35,645 nt of DNA, taken from a virus (lineage: Duplodnaviria; Caudoviricetes). Location of the stretch: IMG/VR virus record IMGVR_UViG_3300034894_000009, positions 1-35,645 of that record. The stretch is one strand, 5' to 3'. Below are positions 30,601 through 35,645 of the stretch, in pieces. The first letter of the stretch is position 1; each line of letters opens with the position of its first letter. The notes under the pieces are model-generated. The model did not search any database and was not told where the DNA came from. It saw only the letters and a list, made by a program, of their open reading frames with translations. Made by a program: the position numbers and the translations under genes.

Positions 30601-31304
30601 GGGGGCCGAGAAACGACACAGACATAACTGTTACCGGGGCGAATTTGACCTATGCCAACGGTAAGCTAAAATTCAACAATTCCTCGACTTACATCACTTC
30701 TCCAACATACCGGCTGCGATTCGGGCAGCATGATTCCCTAAACATTTCACAGCTCGTTGTTGCACAAGTTAAGTGGACGGCTGCAAAAGACCTGTTCGGA
30801 GATCAGGGCACCGGCGGTTTTGGTGGGCTACAATTTTACCAGTCGATTACGCCAAAACGTTTTAGAGTACTCATGCAGCCAACAGCTACTACCGGAGGAT
30901 ATGCAATCTCTAAGTCGGTCAATCCAGGAGCCACAGACACTGTGCAGCTCGGATACGAGATCGATGGGGGAGCACCGCACGTTTATTACAACGGTGCTCT
31001 GCACGACTCGCTGACTAAAAATATTACCCATGACACTACGGTTGCCAGTGCGCTATACGGGTTCTGCGACATCGCCTATTTTGATACTGCTATTATTGCA
31101 GCGGTGCTGTTTGATACATCGATCGAGGCAACAGGGTTCAGCGGGATTTACTCTTCTGGTGGATCTTTTGGAGGATTAAAACTTTTTGACAATAACTTTT
31201 TAGTTGATTCTACTTTTTATAAAATCGATGACCTTGATATAGTTTCGGATGGAGCCAGTCACCGCAGATGGTGGTCATGGAGAGCGTTTAGTAATTGGAG
31301 GTAA
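24597..31304 (+). CDS. 2235-aa secreted multidomain protein: beta-helix, NodB-type polysaccharide deacetylase, LamG-like, glycoside-hydrolase-like barrel, Ig-like, calcineurin-like metallophosphoesterase
   Basis: Signal peptide MRFILFVLIIVSVAFSA; NCTF/NCRF/NCSI beta-helix repeats; ITFDD, NHTQDH, WPYG; WIFQEEPD, GFDVYP, AIVHGAKGVHWY; LPDMH, VGDMV, TGNHD, STHSY. Confidence 0.85.
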   Translation: MRFILFVLIIVSVAFSANFFIRSDGVATKANATGPYTDVNACMTVTTHNAATYSAGDNVYIYGVNRLTALNPPSTGVNYKNIGGMAEINGSKLLTSATYRWIKSSSGRNEYYCELAAGGNPSIASPSYMWINDQRCLVDGTLGNLDQHKGKYGDNDGLGFSTIYVRFEEGDPDVVTGIKVEVSATNYAWTHTSTNIANCTFDSILFNKTTSYVGYLSTACTSFVFKNCRFEKGSDMFQMTNPMRWKFHNCTFAESHGANYGVYVIGTSTDSILFNYCVVKETYSNGFYFNTTVATVYDIINCSIYGTGSTAVRIPTGNTDAEVNISNTAIINHGWRSSSTYGIQASSGTVDVAHSYYTDNWVSPASGGGVTGTIDSTGNIYGGFSRIVSHKIKNAPFAITFDDRTSLAYADTLAKVCNANGVYLTVALPNTNQFSAAEWDTANVFVSNGNEISNHTQDHAMLNVMTACTLQYVGAGTAATVTIDSVNKTLVTSITDASGDNLNISLTNASYNTTTELIAYLEGLAAYTCGKTEAYNDAVQTSLLFGVSGSSIMSKLPLGYDSTRFYDYQIAGNAKYLDDSITVAGYTCRTILWPYGRHDDSVDVFSRKLGVIGARDVSPMISEFPYVDIYDIPSWGISDIYSATEATMKRRCAAVLEGSAYTGYGACLQHGWTGTSKAGSIIFTEYADTAQELGYCKATTFALLSDTIRSWGTPYRTNIDTGRFYFINNRNYLDLRLLSASPLASAGDTGKLKRDLGLILNMNGDTIVRADGSLKTTSVNIGAYGTYNASPPPDSFTIDTTWYLGGAASGTVIVLPSRLKFEENEPCSVVAIPSSGYRCDSIIYQGDGIIGETKITNDTLALTMTENISASVYFSLIPVVDTNTYDTINRWSDLLFQDYFETGTYHRWAQIGAVDVWDWNKLDTVNVTDSIKKGRYALKVKYDGKCNALFDDDYTNTTNRSHDTVFERFEIYLGSDFSLTTNSEVVIGSVANTTQGNQAYLLIRNVAGSYVLRGFSFSGLNTNGTTTINKEQWYTVEFMYDNTNNRFAAWLNGSVEINQTPSFSYPVHKISIGSEDYLSSWSGTMFFDNVIAAKDSIGYQKEIKLIYPDFRSRVSANVTAIFLEEDVGDYAIIKIDGTAIDTLSSPLNGVGYFNVNINSLSSGNHILRAVLYNSSDDSLTKTDYKFYKEYSSTPAFTIDSLNNIIIDGNRKILATSFSSTLGGIRTVAVDSNAVNIMMGGSFSNTDVGRYLDSCNLFDIKFMGPALLNNWYSSVPNDTIDSLISRHSSDPAMAAWIFQEEPDNWGSDPLETKEWWDTIKKQDPIHPHEIILMGYSYFDSNWPSTRRYHWPTWSGDIYGFDVYPIAHWDDVGEDHFGITEYVNCVDAAIQWNHFKIPVIPFIQSSNCNTGSSSWLPTDSMVINMSWLAIVHGAKGVHWYPYPIDGTVCEDPDYVDYRYIGMRNFKIQMDSLSKYICSDSATGFTITDNANDSGSRVDFMCRKDGDTTYVFAARLSEPNEINTVSATFTTNQTYRVDKLNLGTWEYSEHDANSSTFSSAFTPNDVQIFKLYTDETPTEPPVITVDPVSVTDTINRDTTLFAAATGATSWQCQIWSDGSWTDTVANDSARVALTQSRDGDSIRFIASNTGGDDTSTAALITVLADTSAYFNVVVLPDMHIETALNYQYAKSQAQWIIANKTVQNIKYVVTVGDMVTNAKTRQEWLWADSIFDMLDTAKVPYAIATGNHDYDSLGIRRLDSMALYFPKTRLSNNFWWNGKFCDSSKICESGVNTFTAYGNAYGVMTIEAFPRDTITAWAKEYLDTSSNYYNILSTHSYLDSNNTITSADVTVLTGEDMGDSIWKKLRTTDINFIVSGDIGGKLNSSGFRVNYTKQKTYCNQFNNDYQLEGTSNGGLGYLRIYKFKPIANRIEVRTYSPYLNLYSKTDYRDNFATYMFTPDSIGKLPNKYIKHALLPTAAKLGYNPDSTTGNFTVDNTAGNKYLIYRGPRNDTDITVTGANLTYANGKLKFNNSSTYITSPTYRLRFGQHDSLNISQLVVAQVKWTAAKDLFGDQGTGGFGGLQFYQSITPKRFRVLMQPTATTGGYAISKSVNPGATDTVQLGYEIDGGAPHVYYNGALHDSLTKNITHDTTVASALYGFCDIAYFDTAIIAAVLFDTSIEATGFSGIYSSGGSFGGLKLFDNNFLVDSTFYKIDDLDIVSDGASHRRWWSWRAFSNWR

Positions 31305-31691
31305 CGGTTGCGCTATGAGTTCACTGATCTTGCTGACAAGATAGTCTGATGTTACCGACTTGCAGTAACTTGACATATCTTTGTACTCGTTTACCACTTT
31401 GGTAATATCAGCCTTTAGCTGTTGCCTGTCTGTGGCCTGCGACTCCTGATTAGCCTCCGCGCATCTTCCGCTTATTTTTTTACCGTTCTTGATAATAAAT
31501 CCAGATGGATCAATATACACTCCCCCAAACTCACAAAGCTCGCCATTTACGGTAATGGTACGTGGCCCGTCAACGTGGATTCCCATAGCTACTAAATATG
31601 CTGAAATCGCTATCGCAACCTCATTGCCGGTTAAATCAATTTGAACCCCCGGCCAATATTCTGTAGCCCATTTACCAAACGAGACTTTCAT
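31275..31691 (-). CDS. Cassette 1 gene, hypothetical protein
   Basis: AAAGGGA SD before MKVSFGKW; reads through the left arm and S0. Confidence 0.7.
   Translation of the reverse strand: MKVSFGKWATEYWPGVQIDLTGNEVAIAISAYLVAMGIHVDGPRTITVNGELCEFGGVYIDPSGFIIKNGKKISGRCAEANQESQATDRQQLKADITKVVNEYKDMSSYCKSVTSDYLVSKISELIAQPLPPITKRSP
31303..31423 (+). repeat. Degenerate attC-like spacer S0
   Basis: AAC-GGTTGC-GCTA..CTGAT ... ATCAG..TAGC-T-GTT; the AAC overlaps the stop codon of the giant gene. Confidence 0.45.
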
Positions 31692-31746
31692 ATTTCCCTT
31701 TCTTTGGAGCGGCCTACAATATTTGATCTCGCAGGCCATTGCGCAT

Positions 31747-31805
31747 AACGTGTTGCTCAATCTGCGCTGGCCGGGTCAGTTTCCGGCTGGCGTAGTTAAG
31801 CTGTT
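31747..31805 (+). repeat. attC-like spacer S1
   Basis: AAC-GTGTT-GCTCAA-T-CTGCGCTGGCCGG-N8-CCGGCTGGCGTAG-TTAAGC-T-GTT. Confidence 0.8.
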
Positions 31806-32018
31806 GGGCGATGTGCCCGTTTTTTCTATAGTGTTCGCGGCGCACGACACACACTTAGGAAAGGCACTTTCAGCCTTTGTTGCTAAACGCCATGACACGC
31901 GCACCGTTGAATAAAAGCACTCACGGAACTTCTCGATATTTATTGAATCATCAACGCACGCCATACATGGCGTTTTACCGCATTGTTTATCTTCGTAACA
32001 GCAAATAACCCACTTCAT
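31776..32018 (-). CDS. Cassette 2 gene, Cys-rich hypothetical protein
   Basis: AGGCGG SD-like sequence; arms GTTGGGCGATGTGCCCGTTTT / AAAACGGGCATTTCGCCCAAC and GCGGCGCA / TGCGCCGC. Confidence 0.65.
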   Translation of the reverse strand: MKWVICCYEDKQCGKTPCMACVDDSINIEKFRECFYSTVRVSWRLATKAESAFPKCVSCAANTIEKTGTSPNSLTTPAGN

Positions 32019-32063
32019 TTGCGCCGCCTATAATAAATTGTTTTCAAAACGGGCATTTCGCCC

Positions 32064-32120
32064 AACGTCACGCGCAACCCGCCAGTAGTGCCGCTTTGGG
32101 CATTGCTGGCTTGCGCTGTT
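32064..32120 (+). repeat. attC-like spacer S2
   Basis: AAC-GTCAC-GCGCAA-CCC-GCCAGTAGTGCC-N6-GGCATTGCTGGC-TTGCGC-T-GTT. Confidence 0.85.
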
Positions 32121-32952
32121 GTATGACGTTTTGTAAACTACCATGATTTTCAGCGGCGCATTTTCGATATATAATTGCGGGTCGCGCCCACTCGCGTTGA
32201 AACTTCTGCCACGTTGAATCGACGGTGTTCTTCACGTCGCGCCAGAGCATCGCCATAGGAAAAAAACCCAGTTCTACGCAAAGGCGCAGTCGCACTTCTG
32301 CCGCTTCGAAGGTGTCTCGCGGATATCCGATAAGGCAATACACCCGCATGCTTTGCCGAGTGAACCCGGCCGACCTAAGCATCGCAGAAGCTATTCTGAG
32401 CGGCTCCTCGTCGTCGGGCGTATCAAATGCGAAAAACATCTGAGCGGGCCGCAACTTTGAAAGTAGATCTACATGCCACGGTAAAAGCCGCTTTGCTTCT
32501 AATCCGCCAGTAAATTCCACACGCCTGCGCTGCCGCATGAGCATATCAAAAACCCCGCGTATATGCCGCTCAGAACAGGCCAGTATGTTATCATCAAGAA
32601 CATTTGTACCGTCCACAATAGGCAGTTCTACGAGGCCGGGTTCACGCTGCCACACGGAGCAAAACCAGCACCGATTCGGGCACCCGCGAGACGTTATTAC
32701 CGCACCTTCACGAACGTACATTCCAGGCACGAATACTGCGCCCGGTTGATTGTGGGCAGGACCTCCGAATTTAATAGGCGCGACGTGTCTCCACTGTTCC
32801 GCAAGATAATCAGCGCGACCCATATCCCACGTAAACAGAGTAGATACGTGTACCTCGTCGGCTTCATCGAAGAAACCAGGGACATCGTAATACGCCAGAC
32901 TATCGGTAGGTGACAGCCGGGTCTTTCGTGGGAATACTCTCGCAATCTTCAT
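32068..32952 (-). CDS. Cassette 3 gene, radical SAM protein
   Basis: Start MKIARVFP; TSRGCPNRCWFC (CxxxCxxC), LDDNIL, FAFD and VYCLIGY motifs. Confidence 0.9.
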   Translation of the reverse strand: MKIARVFPRKTRLSPTDSLAYYDVPGFFDEADEVHVSTLFTWDMGRADYLAEQWRHVAPIKFGGPAHNQPGAVFVPGMYVREGAVITSRGCPNRCWFCSVWQREPGLVELPIVDGTNVLDDNILACSERHIRGVFDMLMRQRRRVEFTGGLEAKRLLPWHVDLLSKLRPAQMFFAFDTPDDEEPLRIASAMLRSAGFTRQSMRVYCLIGYPRDTFEAAEVRLRLCVELGFFPMAMLWRDVKNTVDSTWQKFQREWARPAIIYRKCAAENHGSLQNVIQQRKPAMPKAALLAGCA

Positions 32953-32991
32953 GCGCCGCCTATAATTCAAAAGGTTTACAAAATGTTATAC

Positions 32992-33052
32992 AACGTTTGA
33001 CAAATGGTGACGTTTCCAATGTGCCTTTAGGCCGAAGCACCATTTGTCTGTT
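32992..33052 (+). repeat. attC-like spacer S3 (branched)
   Basis: AAC-GTTT-GACAAATGGTG...CACCATTTGTC-T-GTT, perfect 11-bp stem. Confidence 0.85.
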
Positions 33053-33251
33053 GTGGGATGTAACTCCCACTTTCAACCAGTTCATAGGAGCCGTATTCGC
33101 CCATAGCTTCGAGGCGTGCCATGATACAAGACCCGCACAGAAGGCCTGCCCCCTCGGCTTTCCCAGACGGTTTGATACGCTCCCAAATTTCGTCTGGCAC
33201 GCCCACATCAATACGGTACTGATTTCCACACCCTTGACATTTACACGACAT
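33027..33251 (-). CDS. Cassette 4 gene, zinc-ribbon-like protein
   Basis: AAAGGAG SD; MSCKCQGCG...VPDEIW...GLLCGSC. Confidence 0.75.
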   Translation of the reverse strand: MSCKCQGCGNQYRIDVGVPDEIWERIKPSGKAEGAGLLCGSCIMARLEAMGEYGSYELVESGSYIPQQTNGASA

Positions 33252-33299
33252 AGCTTCGACGGCTCCTTTACAATTTAAAAAGTGGGAGTTATTTCCCAC

Positions 33300-33360
33300 A
33301 ACGGAATAGCATGGCGACGTACCGCTTCGGTATGTGCGTAGCGAACGCCATGCGGTTGTT
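33300..33360 (+). repeat. attC-like spacer S4 (branched)
   Basis: AAC-GGAATA-GCATGGCG-ACGTACCG-CTT-CGGTATGT-N10-CGCCATGC-GGTT-GTT. Confidence 0.8.
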
Positions 33361-33402
33361 GGTAGAAGTAAACACCGCTACCAAATTTAACTTCCGGGCA
33401 CA

Positions 33403-33693
33403 CTACACTGACGACCTTTCACATAATTCATTGATGAGCGCAACCGACCTGTAAATACGATCGTTCGTTGCTGAGATAAAACCATCGAAATCGGAAAGCG
33501 AAGGCAATTTATCTGCGAGACCACACACCTTCGGATCTCCGGGGCCGATAACCGGAGCAAACTGAAGTTTGAAATGACCTACAGCTTCTTCGAGAACACA
33601 CAGAGCCTTGCCAACCTCATCAGTTCGTGATGAAAACTTCGACTGTGCCTGAAGAGCCGTAGCGCCGTTTGATGGATAACCTATTGTTTGCAT
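33403..33693 (-). CDS. Cassette 5 gene, helical hypothetical protein
   Basis: AAAGGAG SD before MQTIGYPS; the stop codon abuts the inner arm TCCGGGCACA. Confidence 0.7.
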   Translation of the reverse strand: MQTIGYPSNGATALQAQSKFSSRTDEVGKALCVLEEAVGHFKLQFAPVIGPGDPKVCGLADKLPSLSDFDGFISATNDRIYRSVALINELCERSSV

Positions 33694-33751
33694 GAGAACG
33701 ATGCTCCTTTTTGTGCCCGGACTACAATCTCGGGCTGGGTTTATTTTTACC

Positions 33752-33799
33752 AACGGGTTGCCGCACGCCCGATCGTTTTAATGTAGGGCTGCGGCTGTT
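33752..33799 (+). repeat. attC-like spacer S5 (42-nt family)
   Basis: AAC-GGGTT-GCCGCA-C-GCCC-GATCGTTTTAATGT-A-GGGC-TGCGGC-T-GTT. Confidence 0.9.
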
Positions 33800-33816
33800 A
33801 TGCGACGTAAATCCGC

Positions 33817-34035
33817 CTACCCGTTTTCTTTGGCGGGCGACGTTTCAAAACGACTGATGCGACTGTCGAGAATCTGAAGGTAATTCAACATCGCCGACGA
33901 CTGTCGGTTCATATCGAACTGTTCAATTTCGGGAAGCGACTTGAAAACATCGCCACCCAAAAATGCGTTCAACTTATCGAGACGGCTTTTAAGCTCGTCT
34001 CTTTCAACAATGACTCTTTCCTGATGCGGTTGCAT
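33817..34035 (-). CDS. Cassette 6 gene, crAss001_48-like small helical phage protein
   Basis: MQPHQERVIVERDEL..RLDKLNAFL...F..LP..EQ..M.RQ..AM..Y..IL..RI pattern; AAAGGAG SD. Confidence 0.75.
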   Translation of the reverse strand: MQPHQERVIVERDELKSRLDKLNAFLGGDVFKSLPEIEQFDMNRQSSAMLNYLQILDSRISRFETSPAKENG

Positions 34036-34103
34036 AGTAGCTCCTTTATGGTGTTAAATGTAAGCCCGCCAACTTTGATTTAAGAGGCGGATTTATGTTG
34101 TAT

Positions 34104-34151
34104 AACGGCCCCGCGCACAGCCGATCGTTTTAATGTCGGCTTGCGCGTGTT
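34104..34151 (+). repeat. attC-like spacer S6 (42-nt family)
   Basis: AAC-GGCCC-CGCGCA-C-AGCC-GATCGTTTTAATGT-C-GGCT-TGCGCG-T-GTT. Confidence 0.9.
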
Positions 34152-34172
34152 AGCCGATGTAAACCGCGCATC

Positions 34173-34487
34173 CTAATTGCCTTTCGGCGCATACACCGTT
34201 ACGACCTGTTCTTTTGCCTCGTACTCGCAAATACTTCCGGTATCGAACTTAAAGCCCGTTTCTTCTGCCGACATATCGCCGGTTGTTTCAGCATCACGAT
34301 ACCCGATGAGCATACCGTTTAATTCAACGACGGCAGTATAGTCAATCCACCAGCGCCGCCTTGATTCGTTGCCGCGCCATACTTGCTTGGCCTCACGTAT
34401 AGATTCAATGATTGTGGCCTCGTCGGCAGAGTATCCGTTTGCAGAATTGAACGCTGTTACATGCTGCAATACTTTTTCGTTAATCAC
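34173..34487 (-). CDS. Cassette 7 gene, hypothetical phage protein
   Basis: AAAGGAG SD before GTG (MINEKVLQ); RRRWWI...VVELNGMLIGY..A.TTGD. Confidence 0.75.
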   Translation of the reverse strand: MINEKVLQHVTAFNSANGYSADEATIIESIREAKQVWRGNESRRRWWIDYTAVVELNGMLIGYRDAETTGDMSAEETGFKFDTGSICEYEAKEQVVTVYAPKGN

Positions 34488-34542
34488 AAAGGCTCCTTTC
34501 TTTTTGCGCCGAACTATAAACTCAGCGCGGTTTATTTTGGCT

Positions 34543-34668
34543 AACGTGTTGCCGCACCCGCAAGAAGTTAAACTTTCCCACACTCACGATACCGCTCATC
34601 CTGATAGTGCTGCTCAATAAGCTGCATAGGATCGATGTCGGAAAGTTTAATTTTTTGCTGCGGCTGTT
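34543..34668 (+). repeat. attC-like spacer S7 (long, 120 nt)
   Basis: AAC-GTGTT-GCCGCA-CCC-GCAAGAAGTTAAACTTTCC...GGAAAGTTTAATTTTTTGC-TGCGGC-T-GTT. Confidence 0.85.
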
Positions 34669-34921
34669 GTGTTTTGTTGACAGTATCACCTTGAATTTCT
34701 TCTGGCGCGTTATCGTCTTTAACCCAGTATACAGGGACAAACGGAACGTGAGCCAGCTCGTTTTGATATTTGCAATACTTTACCGGACAGATACAAACCT
34801 TCAAAAAGCCACGGTACCCCGTGATGAATACCGCCGGTACCTTACTGGCAAACTTACACGTAGAAAAACTATTTCCCGTATCGTGACAGAACGGTATTTT
34901 ACAACTTGCCACGCTTGACAT
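34568..34921 (-). CDS. Cassette 8 gene, Cys-containing hypothetical protein
   Basis: AAGGAG SD before MSSVASCK; stop codon lies inside S7. Confidence 0.65.
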   Translation of the reverse strand: MSSVASCKIPFCHDTGNSFSTCKFASKVPAVFITGYRGFLKVCICPVKYCKYQNELAHVPFVPVYWVKDDNAPEEIQGDTVNKTQQPQQKIKLSDIDPMQLIEQHYQDERYRECGKV

Positions 34922-34976
34922 AAACAACGCTCCTTCGCGCCAGACTACAATAAAAAGAATGCTGGCAATTGAACAC

Positions 34977-35047
34977 AACGGATCAGCAAGGCAGAAGCGC
35001 CGCTTCGGCGTTTGGGTCGAGGCTTTGCGAGCCTGCCTTGCGTTGTT
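34977..35047 (+). repeat. attC-like spacer S8 (branched)
   Basis: AAC-GGATCA-GCAAGGCAG-AAGCGCCG-CTT-CGGCGTTT...CTGCCTTGC-GTT-GTT. Confidence 0.8.
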
Positions 35048-35291
35048 GGTTGACGTTTGGCAGTAGCACCTTATTTGCTTTTTGCTGCCGGTGATATTCG
35101 CGACAATGATCCGCAGAACAGAAACTGTTATTATGTGAATGCTCTGCACCGCAAAGCAAGCACCTTTTTAACGGCCTTGAAGTTCCGGAGTGTGAAAAAC
35201 AGTCGGCAAAACCAACCCCATGACATAGCATGGTGCCCATTGCCATTGCCAAAACTGCATAGTTTAACTGACGTTTCATAGGATTATTCAC
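34983..35291 (-). CDS. Cassette 9 gene, FCS-type zinc-finger protein
   Basis: GGAGG SD before GTG; CLLCG...FCSADHC motif. Confidence 0.7.
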   Translation of the reverse strand: MNNPMKRQLNYAVLAMAMGTMLCHGVGFADCFSHSGTSRPLKRCLLCGAEHSHNNSFCSADHCREYHRQQKANKVLLPNVNQQRKAGSQSLDPNAEAALLPC

Positions 35292-35350
35292 TTTATCGCA
35301 CCTCCGTAGGCAGCAAAACTATAATAAAGTTCTACTGCCTAATGTTAACC

Positions 35351-35398
35351 AACGTGTCGCGCAACGTGTGATCGTTTTAATGTCACACTTGCGCTGTT
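35351..35398 (+). repeat. attC-like spacer S9 (42-nt family)
   Basis: AAC-GTGTC-GCGCAA-C-GTGT-GATCGTTTTAATGT-C-ACAC-TTGCGC-T-GTT. Confidence 0.9.
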
Positions 35399-35437
35399 GT
35401 ACGAAGTTTGGCGGTCTTCCATAGTGTTTCCGCCGCA

Positions 35438-35590
35438 TTAACACGAAAGATCACAAGGAGCGTCCCCACACTCTTCGCATAATACCGGAGACCAGTTACA
35501 CCCAGAAGCAGCTTGACCATCTACGGTATCGGAACCACACTTGGGACACTCTCCATTTGGCTTACCTAAATCCCAACCATCTGAACACAT
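35438..35590 (-). CDS. Cassette 10 gene, 50-aa eight-cysteine mini-protein
   Basis: Manual translation MCSDGWDLGKPNGECPKCGSDTVDGQAASGCNWSPVLCEECGDAPCDLSC; AGGAAGG SD; below the ORF-track length cutoff. Confidence 0.75.
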   Translation of the reverse strand: MCSDGWDLGKPNGECPKCGSDTVDGQAASGCNWSPVLCEECGDAPCDLSC

Positions 35591-35645
35591 ACGAACCTTC
35601 CTTGCGGCGGACTATAAATTCAGAGACCGCCAAATTTTGTACAAC

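Follow-up and report, generated by a model that had tools for sequence, protein, structure and literature searches.

A phage array of mobile gene cassettes with paired bipartite inverted ends, probably served by a host integron-like recombinase lacking I2

RESULTS

The cassette array and its setting

The window of this study is the whole 35,645-nt stretch of viral record IMGVR_UViG_3300034894_000009 (Caudoviricetes), a linear record that is 82% complete and encodes terminase and capsid genes. Its last 4.3 kb is an array of small gene cassettes. Nine of them, C2-C10, each read GTT...AAC on the + strand and are separated by hairpin spacers (S1-S9; Table 1). A decayed distal cassette that has lost its end pairing, C1, extends the array as a tenth, together with a spacer that does not fold (S0). 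The genes of the array lie on the - strand, convergent with a 2235-amino-acid (aa) phage gene. The distal end of the array (31290-31305) overlaps the stop codon of this gene, and the adjoining backbone carries the letters of a cassette-start box; this stretch probably represents the right half of the site at which insertion first took place. Phage G012, which shares two cassettes with the window, also has a large gene near its array, non-homologous to the 2235-aa gene. A search of Rfam gave no credible family match for the array region, and S2-C3 was unmatched among 50,697 cultured phages.

Cassette ends pair with their own partners

The initial annotation had proposed that each of C2-C10 is enclosed by its own bipartite terminal inverted repeat of about 45 nt, and all nine repeats were found in place. 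The outer arms of cognate ends agree at 16-20 of the first 22 positions, compared with 15 for the best of 72 non-cognate pairs, so that the arms are indeed complementary within a cassette and different between cassettes. Cognate ends were also favored, as had been predicted, when all arms were paired with all others: over positions 8-22 the cognate sum was reached by 1 of 362,880 permutations, and the duplex energy (60 nt against 60 nt, DNA parameters) was -30.2 kcal/mol for cognate ends versus -10.5 kcal/mol for non-cognate ends, the strongest non-cognate pair giving -21.1 kcal/mol. The GC-rich inner arms of C2-C10 are exact complements of 8-10 bp that begin 34-37 nt from the left end. The gap between the arms, annotated as roughly 10-20 unpaired nt, measures 11-19 nt in eight cassettes; C9 has only 5 nt and hence an almost unbroken stem. 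A search for such bipartite ends returned 10 matches in the array region, where nine cassettes were expected, and none in the 31.3-kb backbone or in 200 shuffles.

As a control we used 21 classical Vibrio cassettes from two records, a set that contains no class 1 cassettes. The score over positions 8-22 was 11.7 for cognate versus 6.0 for non-cognate ends in the window, and 7.0 versus 5.8 in the control; the longest inner match was 9.1 versus 5.1 in the window and 5.3 versus 5.4 in the control. The listed ends of the 21 Vibrio cassettes pair perfectly over about 9-11 nt and have no inner arm. The end-to-end complementarity of about 7 bp that had been quoted for classical cassettes is therefore too low, while the scores agree with the claim that the long bipartite architecture is not routine in classical cassettes.

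S9 plus C10 folds as a spacer hairpin, a 22-bp stem, a loop and a 9-bp stem (z = -4.5; 0 of 100 shuffles). The long rod foreseen for an excised single-stranded circle forms in silico for C2-C10, with 15-23 of 24 outer positions paired. For single-stranded array DNA the predicted probability of the cognate stem is 0.87-0.99 in seven of eight cassettes and 0.11 in C5, while that of AAC/GTT pairing across a spacer is about 0. Position 11 of the outer arm is G against A in all nine window cassettes, and the imperfection of the outer arm is thus not random.

Relatives, covariation and strand bias

Pattern scans yielded overlapping sets of stretches, 7 and 10 viral, 10 from genomes and 56 from metagenomes; matches in two of them (L010 and L015) looked like chance and were left out. 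The same design is present in about 100 cassettes of other phages and Fibrobacterota genomes. A matched downstream end (score at least 14 of 19) was found for 103 of 185 distinct spacers; 54 of these ends run precisely up to the next spacer detected, 30 have G after them, as spacers do, and 19 something else. A first set defined by consecutive spacers was bimodal (mean 9.5 versus 5.9 of 19) because undetected spacers had fused cassettes. For the analysis of arms, four window cassettes were added and 5 of 106 rows dropped (duplicates, one merged, one doubtful), leaving 76 ungapped cassettes and 25 with a one-base bulge at the gene-end arm. Among the ungapped cassettes position 11 is unpaired in 75, with G against A in 67. 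Wobbles favor folding of the non-coding (bottom) strand by 130 to 16, or 63 to 15 when position 11 is omitted, with 99 other mismatches; the same G·T bias is known for attC sites (PMC5027507). Match rates at the other arm positions are partly circular, since rows were selected by similarity, but this does not affect the position-11 pattern or the strand bias.

In 13 related frame pairs, which are not independent (a frame being the paired ends that enclose a gene), 23 changes were compensatory, 5 one-sided and 3 two-sided without pairing. The only outer-arm change in the C3 homologue is a clean compensatory one. These counts support the annotated conservation of structure over sequence. Inner matches in the relatives average 8.3 versus 5.4 nt, with a median start of 36 nt at both ends.

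Arrays of the window type also occur in metagenome-assembled genomes (MAGs) labelled Prolixibacteraceae, Acetivibrio, Sulfuricurvum, Paceibacterota and Omnitrophota (L008, L009, L011, L012 and L016). L012 equals a viral record in length and sites, so some of these may be mis-binned phage contigs.

Hairpin spacers

The spacers are hairpins of 47-188 nt that read AAC, 5 nt, a 6-bp stem, a variable stem-loop, T and GTT. The 5' arm generally carries an additional C or T, and 76 of 95 spacers have a 5x1 loop, a geometry partly imposed by a detector that demanded a 5x(1-3) loop, although S1-S9 had been read by eye beforehand. Folding energy is lower on the + strand in seven of S1-S9. Classical attC sites recombine at AAC on the bottom strand and carry extrahelical bases near L'' (PMC5027507). 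The spacers resemble them in having an AAC/GTT R box and an imperfect hairpin downstream of each gene, but position 5 is T or G, unlike the canonical RYYYAAC/GTTRRRY box, and the bottom-strand extrahelical bases near L'' do not follow the canonical geometry. Model R1, built on window-type spacers, had no match in the classical array L145, and no spacer of window geometry was found in TJE1.

Cassettes move as units

C3 and C7 (95% protein identity) are the only window cassettes present in phage G012. The two are adjacent there, and the G012 C7 (96% DNA identity) has a different spacer, the exception among five homologous cassette pairs, four of which kept theirs. In a contig of run X2 the end of C9 is joined to S6-C7 at AAC. 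In run X1, the run that best matches the record and perhaps its source, S9-C10 has a depth of 15.5 versus 6.4 and two left neighbors, and two different contigs extend from the last base of the record, which indicates that the record ends at a cassette branch point. In the same run the depth of C2-C3 (31769-33004) is roughly double that of the backbone, so the sample may contain a second copy. Two inverted cassettes in L002 (3523-4275 and 5257-6070), each with its own spacer at the 3' end of the gene, are inserted at the GTT of resident spacers and part each resident spacer from its cassette. It follows that the unit is a gene plus its downstream spacer and that both triplets, AAC and GTT, can be used. 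One of the spacers of phage L023 has an identical copy in a Fibrobacter MAG. Cassette units thus change order and orientation and pass between phages that are unrelated, the junctions falling at AAC/GTT. The suggestion that the rod allows only cognate ends to synapse gained no support, since spacers with different neighbors and insertions that split a spacer from its cassette mean that non-cognate junctions are tolerated.

Frames and their cargo

In seven frame pairs identity is 77-98% as far as the inner arm and drops to 25-62% over the following 40 nt (one arm unscored), with no detectable DNA or protein homology inside (for example C7/L079, C2/L109 and C10/L011). Arms are therefore cassette-specific within the window, as annotated, while elsewhere near-identical frames enclose unrelated genes. 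The stop codon touches the inner arm in C5 and C10, and the start codon does so in C2 and C3. These sequences suggest that cargo is swapped at the inner arm, via microhomology recombination or another route. Alternatively, selection may act on the frames, with exchange anywhere inside. The proposal that the arms are a trace of cassette making gains from the shared frames and the drop in identity, but no mechanism emerged. Three very short cassettes (153-163 bp; L007 5821-6185, L020 8547-8699, and L016 5488-5649 in - strand numbering) may be near-empty frames or hold tiny open reading frames (ORFs).

A -10-like hexamer lies ahead of the inner arm in 36 of 53 phage or small cassettes versus 3 of 22 chromosome-like ones (our grouping), and it fits the -10 consensus somewhat better on the non-coding strand. 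A scan for sigma-70 promoters showed no enrichment, with 5 pairs found versus 6.5 expected.

The C6 ORF (33817-34035, - strand) encodes a stand-alone PF21825 protein (E = 1e-20) that contains R7, E11, Q45 and R59. PF21825 is Sequestin, which blocks type I Thoeris, and the same residues (Q45 printed as 'O45') are listed for SequestinB (bioRxiv 10.1101/2025.07.12.664507). The C6 protein is likely to be an anti-Thoeris sponge; no solved structure was found for it. Cassette proteins other than those of C3 and C6 gave no informative family match.

An integrase without I2 in Fibrobacterota, and related loci in Bacteroidota

The window, whose record is incomplete as stated, yielded no match to a PF00589 tyrosine recombinase, a Y1 transposase or a reverse transcriptase. 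PF00589 was not found in 7 related phage records, nor PF01797 (Y1 transposase) and PF00078 (reverse transcriptase) in any of 5, all of which may be incomplete, and viral contigs searched with the integrase of locus L043 gave no confirmed match. Window-type spacers are present in Fibrobacter and Chitinispirillaceae MAGs. In one contig (G008:C121) an IntI-like gene is followed by a boundary without a hairpin and then by cassettes of the window design. Relatives of this integrase occur in 40 of 151 Fibrobacterota genomes. Co-oriented spacers lie downstream of the integrase at 11 of 20 Fibrobacterota loci, with none on the opposite strand and one weak match upstream; the spacer detector gave 1 match in 103 kb of control DNA. 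Just past the integrase gene, 16 of 20 loci have a putative attI, picked by eye: a hairpin-less boundary with a cassette-start box, within about 40-360 nt of the stop codon on the 3' side of the gene. A strict start pattern that required the phage-type hexamer was found at only 2 of 33 integrase loci.

The array-linked integrases contain PF00589 and PF13495 (SAM_4) domains and keep the R-H-R-Y residues. All 21 array-type rows lack the I2 insertion specific to IntI, with 32 and 10 gap columns relative to IntIA. With TIGR02249 (IntI) the integrases of two stretches score 164 and 180 bits, compared with a cut-off of 265 and a control of 494. No TIGR02249 match above the cut-off was found in five MAGs that hold window-type spacers, all incomplete genomes. 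In a tree rooted at its midpoint, in which IntIA has a long branch, the array integrases group with IntIA and not with XerC/D. Among Bacteroidota, 24 of 81 genomes have relatives of the integrase, and five of nine first cassettes have arms of 12-14 nt with the same position-11 mismatch.

Several phage arrays begin at a hairpin-less A/GTT boundary. A conserved -10-like word stands 5-7 nt ahead of the first GTT in several phage arrays (starts of L003, L006, L016, L079 and L093) and is possibly a Pc promoter or an attI box; the start of the window's own array is absent from the record. A perfect inverted repeat often stands ahead of the attI-like sites on chromosomes (L146, L148, L151, L158 and L043, just after the integrase).

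Table 1. Features of the cassette array and the adjoining phage gene
Feature	Position	Strand	Remarks
2235-aa phage gene	24597..31304	+	Polysaccharide deacetylase and metallophosphoesterase domains; context, outside the cassette system
S0, distal spacer	31303..31423	+	No single-rod fold (chimeric or decayed); AAC overlaps stop of 2235-aa gene; far array end
C1, decayed cassette	31421..31749	-	One bulge in outer arm (15/21); proper inner arm lacking; outside the range initially annotated
C1 ORF	31275-31691	-	138 aa; frame of C1 akin to L080 and L099 frames
S1, attC-like hairpin spacer	31747..31805	+	Belongs to C2; by eye akin to a Chitinispirillaceae MAG spacer (L055)
C2	31803..32066	-	Outer 31803-31823/32046-32066; inner 31837-31844/32020-32027
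C2 ORF	31776-32018	-	80 aa; frame of C2 reused with other cargo in L109 and L002
S2, spacer of C3	32064..32120	+	Identical copy in phage G012
C3	32118..32994	-	Outer arms 21 nt; inner 32153-32161/32951-32959
C3 ORF, radical-SAM-like	32068-32952	-	G012 homologue has compensatory change at arm position 12
S3, spacer of C4	32992..33052	+	
C4	33050..33302	-	Outer arms 24 nt; inner 33086-33094/33259-33267; a small ORF of uncertain start within frame 33027-33299
S4, spacer of C5	33300..33360	+	
C5	33358..33754	-	Inner 33393-33402/33712-33721; ORF 33403-33696, stop codon touching inner arm
S5, spacer of C6	33752..33799	+	
C6	33797..34106	-	Inner 33830-33838/34064-34072; ORF 33817-34035, PF21825
S6, spacer of C7	34104..34151	+	(Near-)identical in L004, L011, L012, L016, L079, L093
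C7	34149..34545	-	Inner 34183-34191/34505-34513; ORF 34173-34493
S7, long spacer of C8	34543..34668	+	126 nt
C8	34666..34979	-	Inner 34701-34709/34936-34944; Cys-rich ORF about 34568-34921
S8, spacer of C9	34977..35047	+	
C9	35045..35353	-	Near-unbroken 45-nt stem; inner 35080-35089/35309-35318; ORF 34983-35291
S9, spacer of C10	35351..35398	+	
C10	35396..35645	-	Outer arms 22 nt; inner 35429-35437/35603-35611
C10 ORF	35438-35590	-	50 aa; stop touching inner arm; record ends at AAC of C10

DISCUSSION

We consider it fairly probable, from sequence comparisons, that the array is a phage row of mobile cassettes bounded by matching bipartite inverted ends, and that the cassettes are excised and inserted at AAC/GTT by an integron-like tyrosine recombinase of the host that lacks I2. 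The incomplete record holds ten spacers, and no PF00589 was found in it; the spacer sites are non-canonical as attC. The array is likely to be the integrase-less array of an I2-less integron variant. The phage itself, we infer, supplies only sites and cassettes, and the enzyme would come from the host. In its presumed working this is an integron-like cassette array, but it departs from integrons in two defining features, I2 and the geometry of attC.

In the mechanism that we propose, the non-coding strand would fold, as folding predictions indicate, into the spacer hairpin, an outer stem of 20-22 bp, a loop and an inner stem of 9 bp. The host integrase would recognize this folded strand through contacts with the spacer stem and with the outer stem over its first 11-12 bp, and would cut AA/C on the non-coding strand. 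Xer proteins use a binding arm of similar length to this 11-12-bp box. The near-constant G·T mismatch at position 11, together with the asymmetric 5x1 loop, may label the strand and impede a second exchange, and the extra stems could keep both ends of a single-stranded cassette in register, favoring re-insertion. In classical integrons, strand choice and the blocking of the second exchange are jobs of I2 and the extrahelical bases (PMC7790495). The weakest step is that the inner arm may also be the border of cargo exchange.

Several observations weigh against this explanation. I2 is considered necessary for cassette capture and for recombination of single strands (PMC7790495), and the phage array is linked to the integrase through shared sites only. 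Nine of the 20 integrase loci have no spacer; among the spacer-less loci L156 and L161 lack even the start box, three lie near contig ends, and L160 has no integrase by pattern. No circle junction was seen in the assembled contigs of 7 runs, and circle energies are lower on the non-coding strand in only 5 of 9 cassettes. The two inverted cassettes of L002 lack the GC-rich inner arm, and 43 of the 185 spacers have no partner despite at least 1.5 kb of contig; a further 21 have <1.5 kb and 15 lie at contig ends. Of 19 scored loci in Bacteroidota, only 2 had long arms, and not every integrase of this kind can therefore need them. The arms of the Bacteroidota first cassettes imply that the short box is general and the long bipartite frame belongs mainly to the Fibrobacterota pool and its phages.

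The short Bacteroidota arms would also suit the view that the arms are a by-product of cassette building or repair, by templated copying in a folded single strand, and that only AAC/GTT and the spacer matter. Frames that recur around unrelated cargo agree with it, and hairpin repair would likewise yield concerted changes. However, templating would erase the mismatch at position 11, which is almost always kept, and the register of the inner arm is conserved. Arms also persist where ORFs read through, and the distal cassette C1 has lost its pairing. We regard this explanation as unlikely. The hexamer found mainly in phage or small cassettes, outer arms that in some cases resemble terminators, and spacers that amount to shared repeats would fit RNA or promoter/terminator modules of the promoter early stem-loop (PeSL) kind, shuffled by homologous recombination between repeats. 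PeSLs of T4-type phages bound small-gene modules with structured promoter-like repeats much as the present frames do, but they are shuffled homologously and are not known to have an AAC/GTT core or cassette-specific matched ends. Moreover, the wobbles of the arms favor the non-coding strand, which would leave C·A mismatches in an mRNA, no enrichment of sigma-70 pairs was seen, the AAC/GTT triplet is the site of junctions and inversions alike, and the arrays are linked to an integrase. Such modules are quite unlikely to account for the frames.

The array might also be an ordinary cluster of attC sites lacking an integrase (CALIN), with canonical attC sites served by a classical IntI. AAC/GTT cores, hairpins downstream of genes and the G·T bias are what such a cluster would show, and phage CALINs are known (PMC9892861). 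The 5x1 loop, whose additional bases lie on the 5' arm of the strand that folds (a geometry in part set by the detector), argues otherwise, as do the canonical look of the published phage attC oligonucleotides (PMC9892861), the lack of a TIGR02249 match above cut-off in the incomplete spacer-holding MAGs, and the absence of long arms from classical cassettes, and we believe this reading to be very unlikely. Single-strand hairpins with a strand bias are typical of systems in which an HUH (Y1) transposase or a reverse transcriptase mobilizes hairpin-bounded units. Neither family was found in the five phage records searched, though, and the gene beside the chromosomal arrays is a tyrosine recombinase, which makes this origin extremely improbable.

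Of known systems, integrons share with the present one a tyrosine recombinase beside an insertion site (here putative), co-directional cassettes, AAC/GTT crossover, a 3' hairpin and the non-coding-strand G·T bias (PMC5027507, PMC7790495). They differ in that the integrase here lacks I2 and is aimed at the array, the extra bases lie on the other arm with a 5x1 loop, and pairing of cassette ends spans 20-22 bp, with an inner arm in addition, rather than about 9-11 bp. The phage CALINs described by Qi et al. (2023, PMC9892861) are likewise cassette arrays in phages without an integrase, for which a host enzyme is presumed. Canonical attC models served to detect those sites, and IntI1 acted on 5 of 6, whereas the present sites have another geometry, long matched ends and, in several phages, attI-like starts. 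Integrative mobile elements exploiting Xer (IMEX), such as CTX phage integrating via XerC, also use a folded single strand, a tyrosine recombinase without I2 and one strand exchange, but with host XerCD at dif and a whole phage genome, and with no dedicated integrase or multi-cassette array (PMC7790495). The DUF1874 motif (Weinberg et al. 2017, PMC5737381) is a structured element in consecutive intergenic regions that has been proposed to be an unusual attC; the array region has no credible Rfam match, and that account reports no integrase with DUF1874. Our literature search, made at the level of abstracts and with subscription journals mostly outside it, found no paper on I2-less cassette arrays or on extended inverted repeats of cassettes. 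At least one survey retained only integrases that bear I2 (PMC2426708), and would therefore have missed a platform without it.

An I2-less platform would be a natural intermediate for the origin of integrons, for which the lack of intermediates has been noted (PMC7790495). Unrelated phages appear to draw on one pool of cassettes with their hosts, a counter-defense gene included, and the 77-98% identical frames around unrelated genes offer a handle on the unsolved origin of cassettes. A bolder view, which we find possible but doubtful, is that of a living 'pre-I2' integron in which the cassette DNA rod replaces the I2 helix in choosing the strand and blocking the second exchange, the frames are reusable empty vectors loaded at the inner arms, and Fibrobacterota phages hijack the system to trade anti-defense genes. 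If true, it would reveal how cassettes are made.

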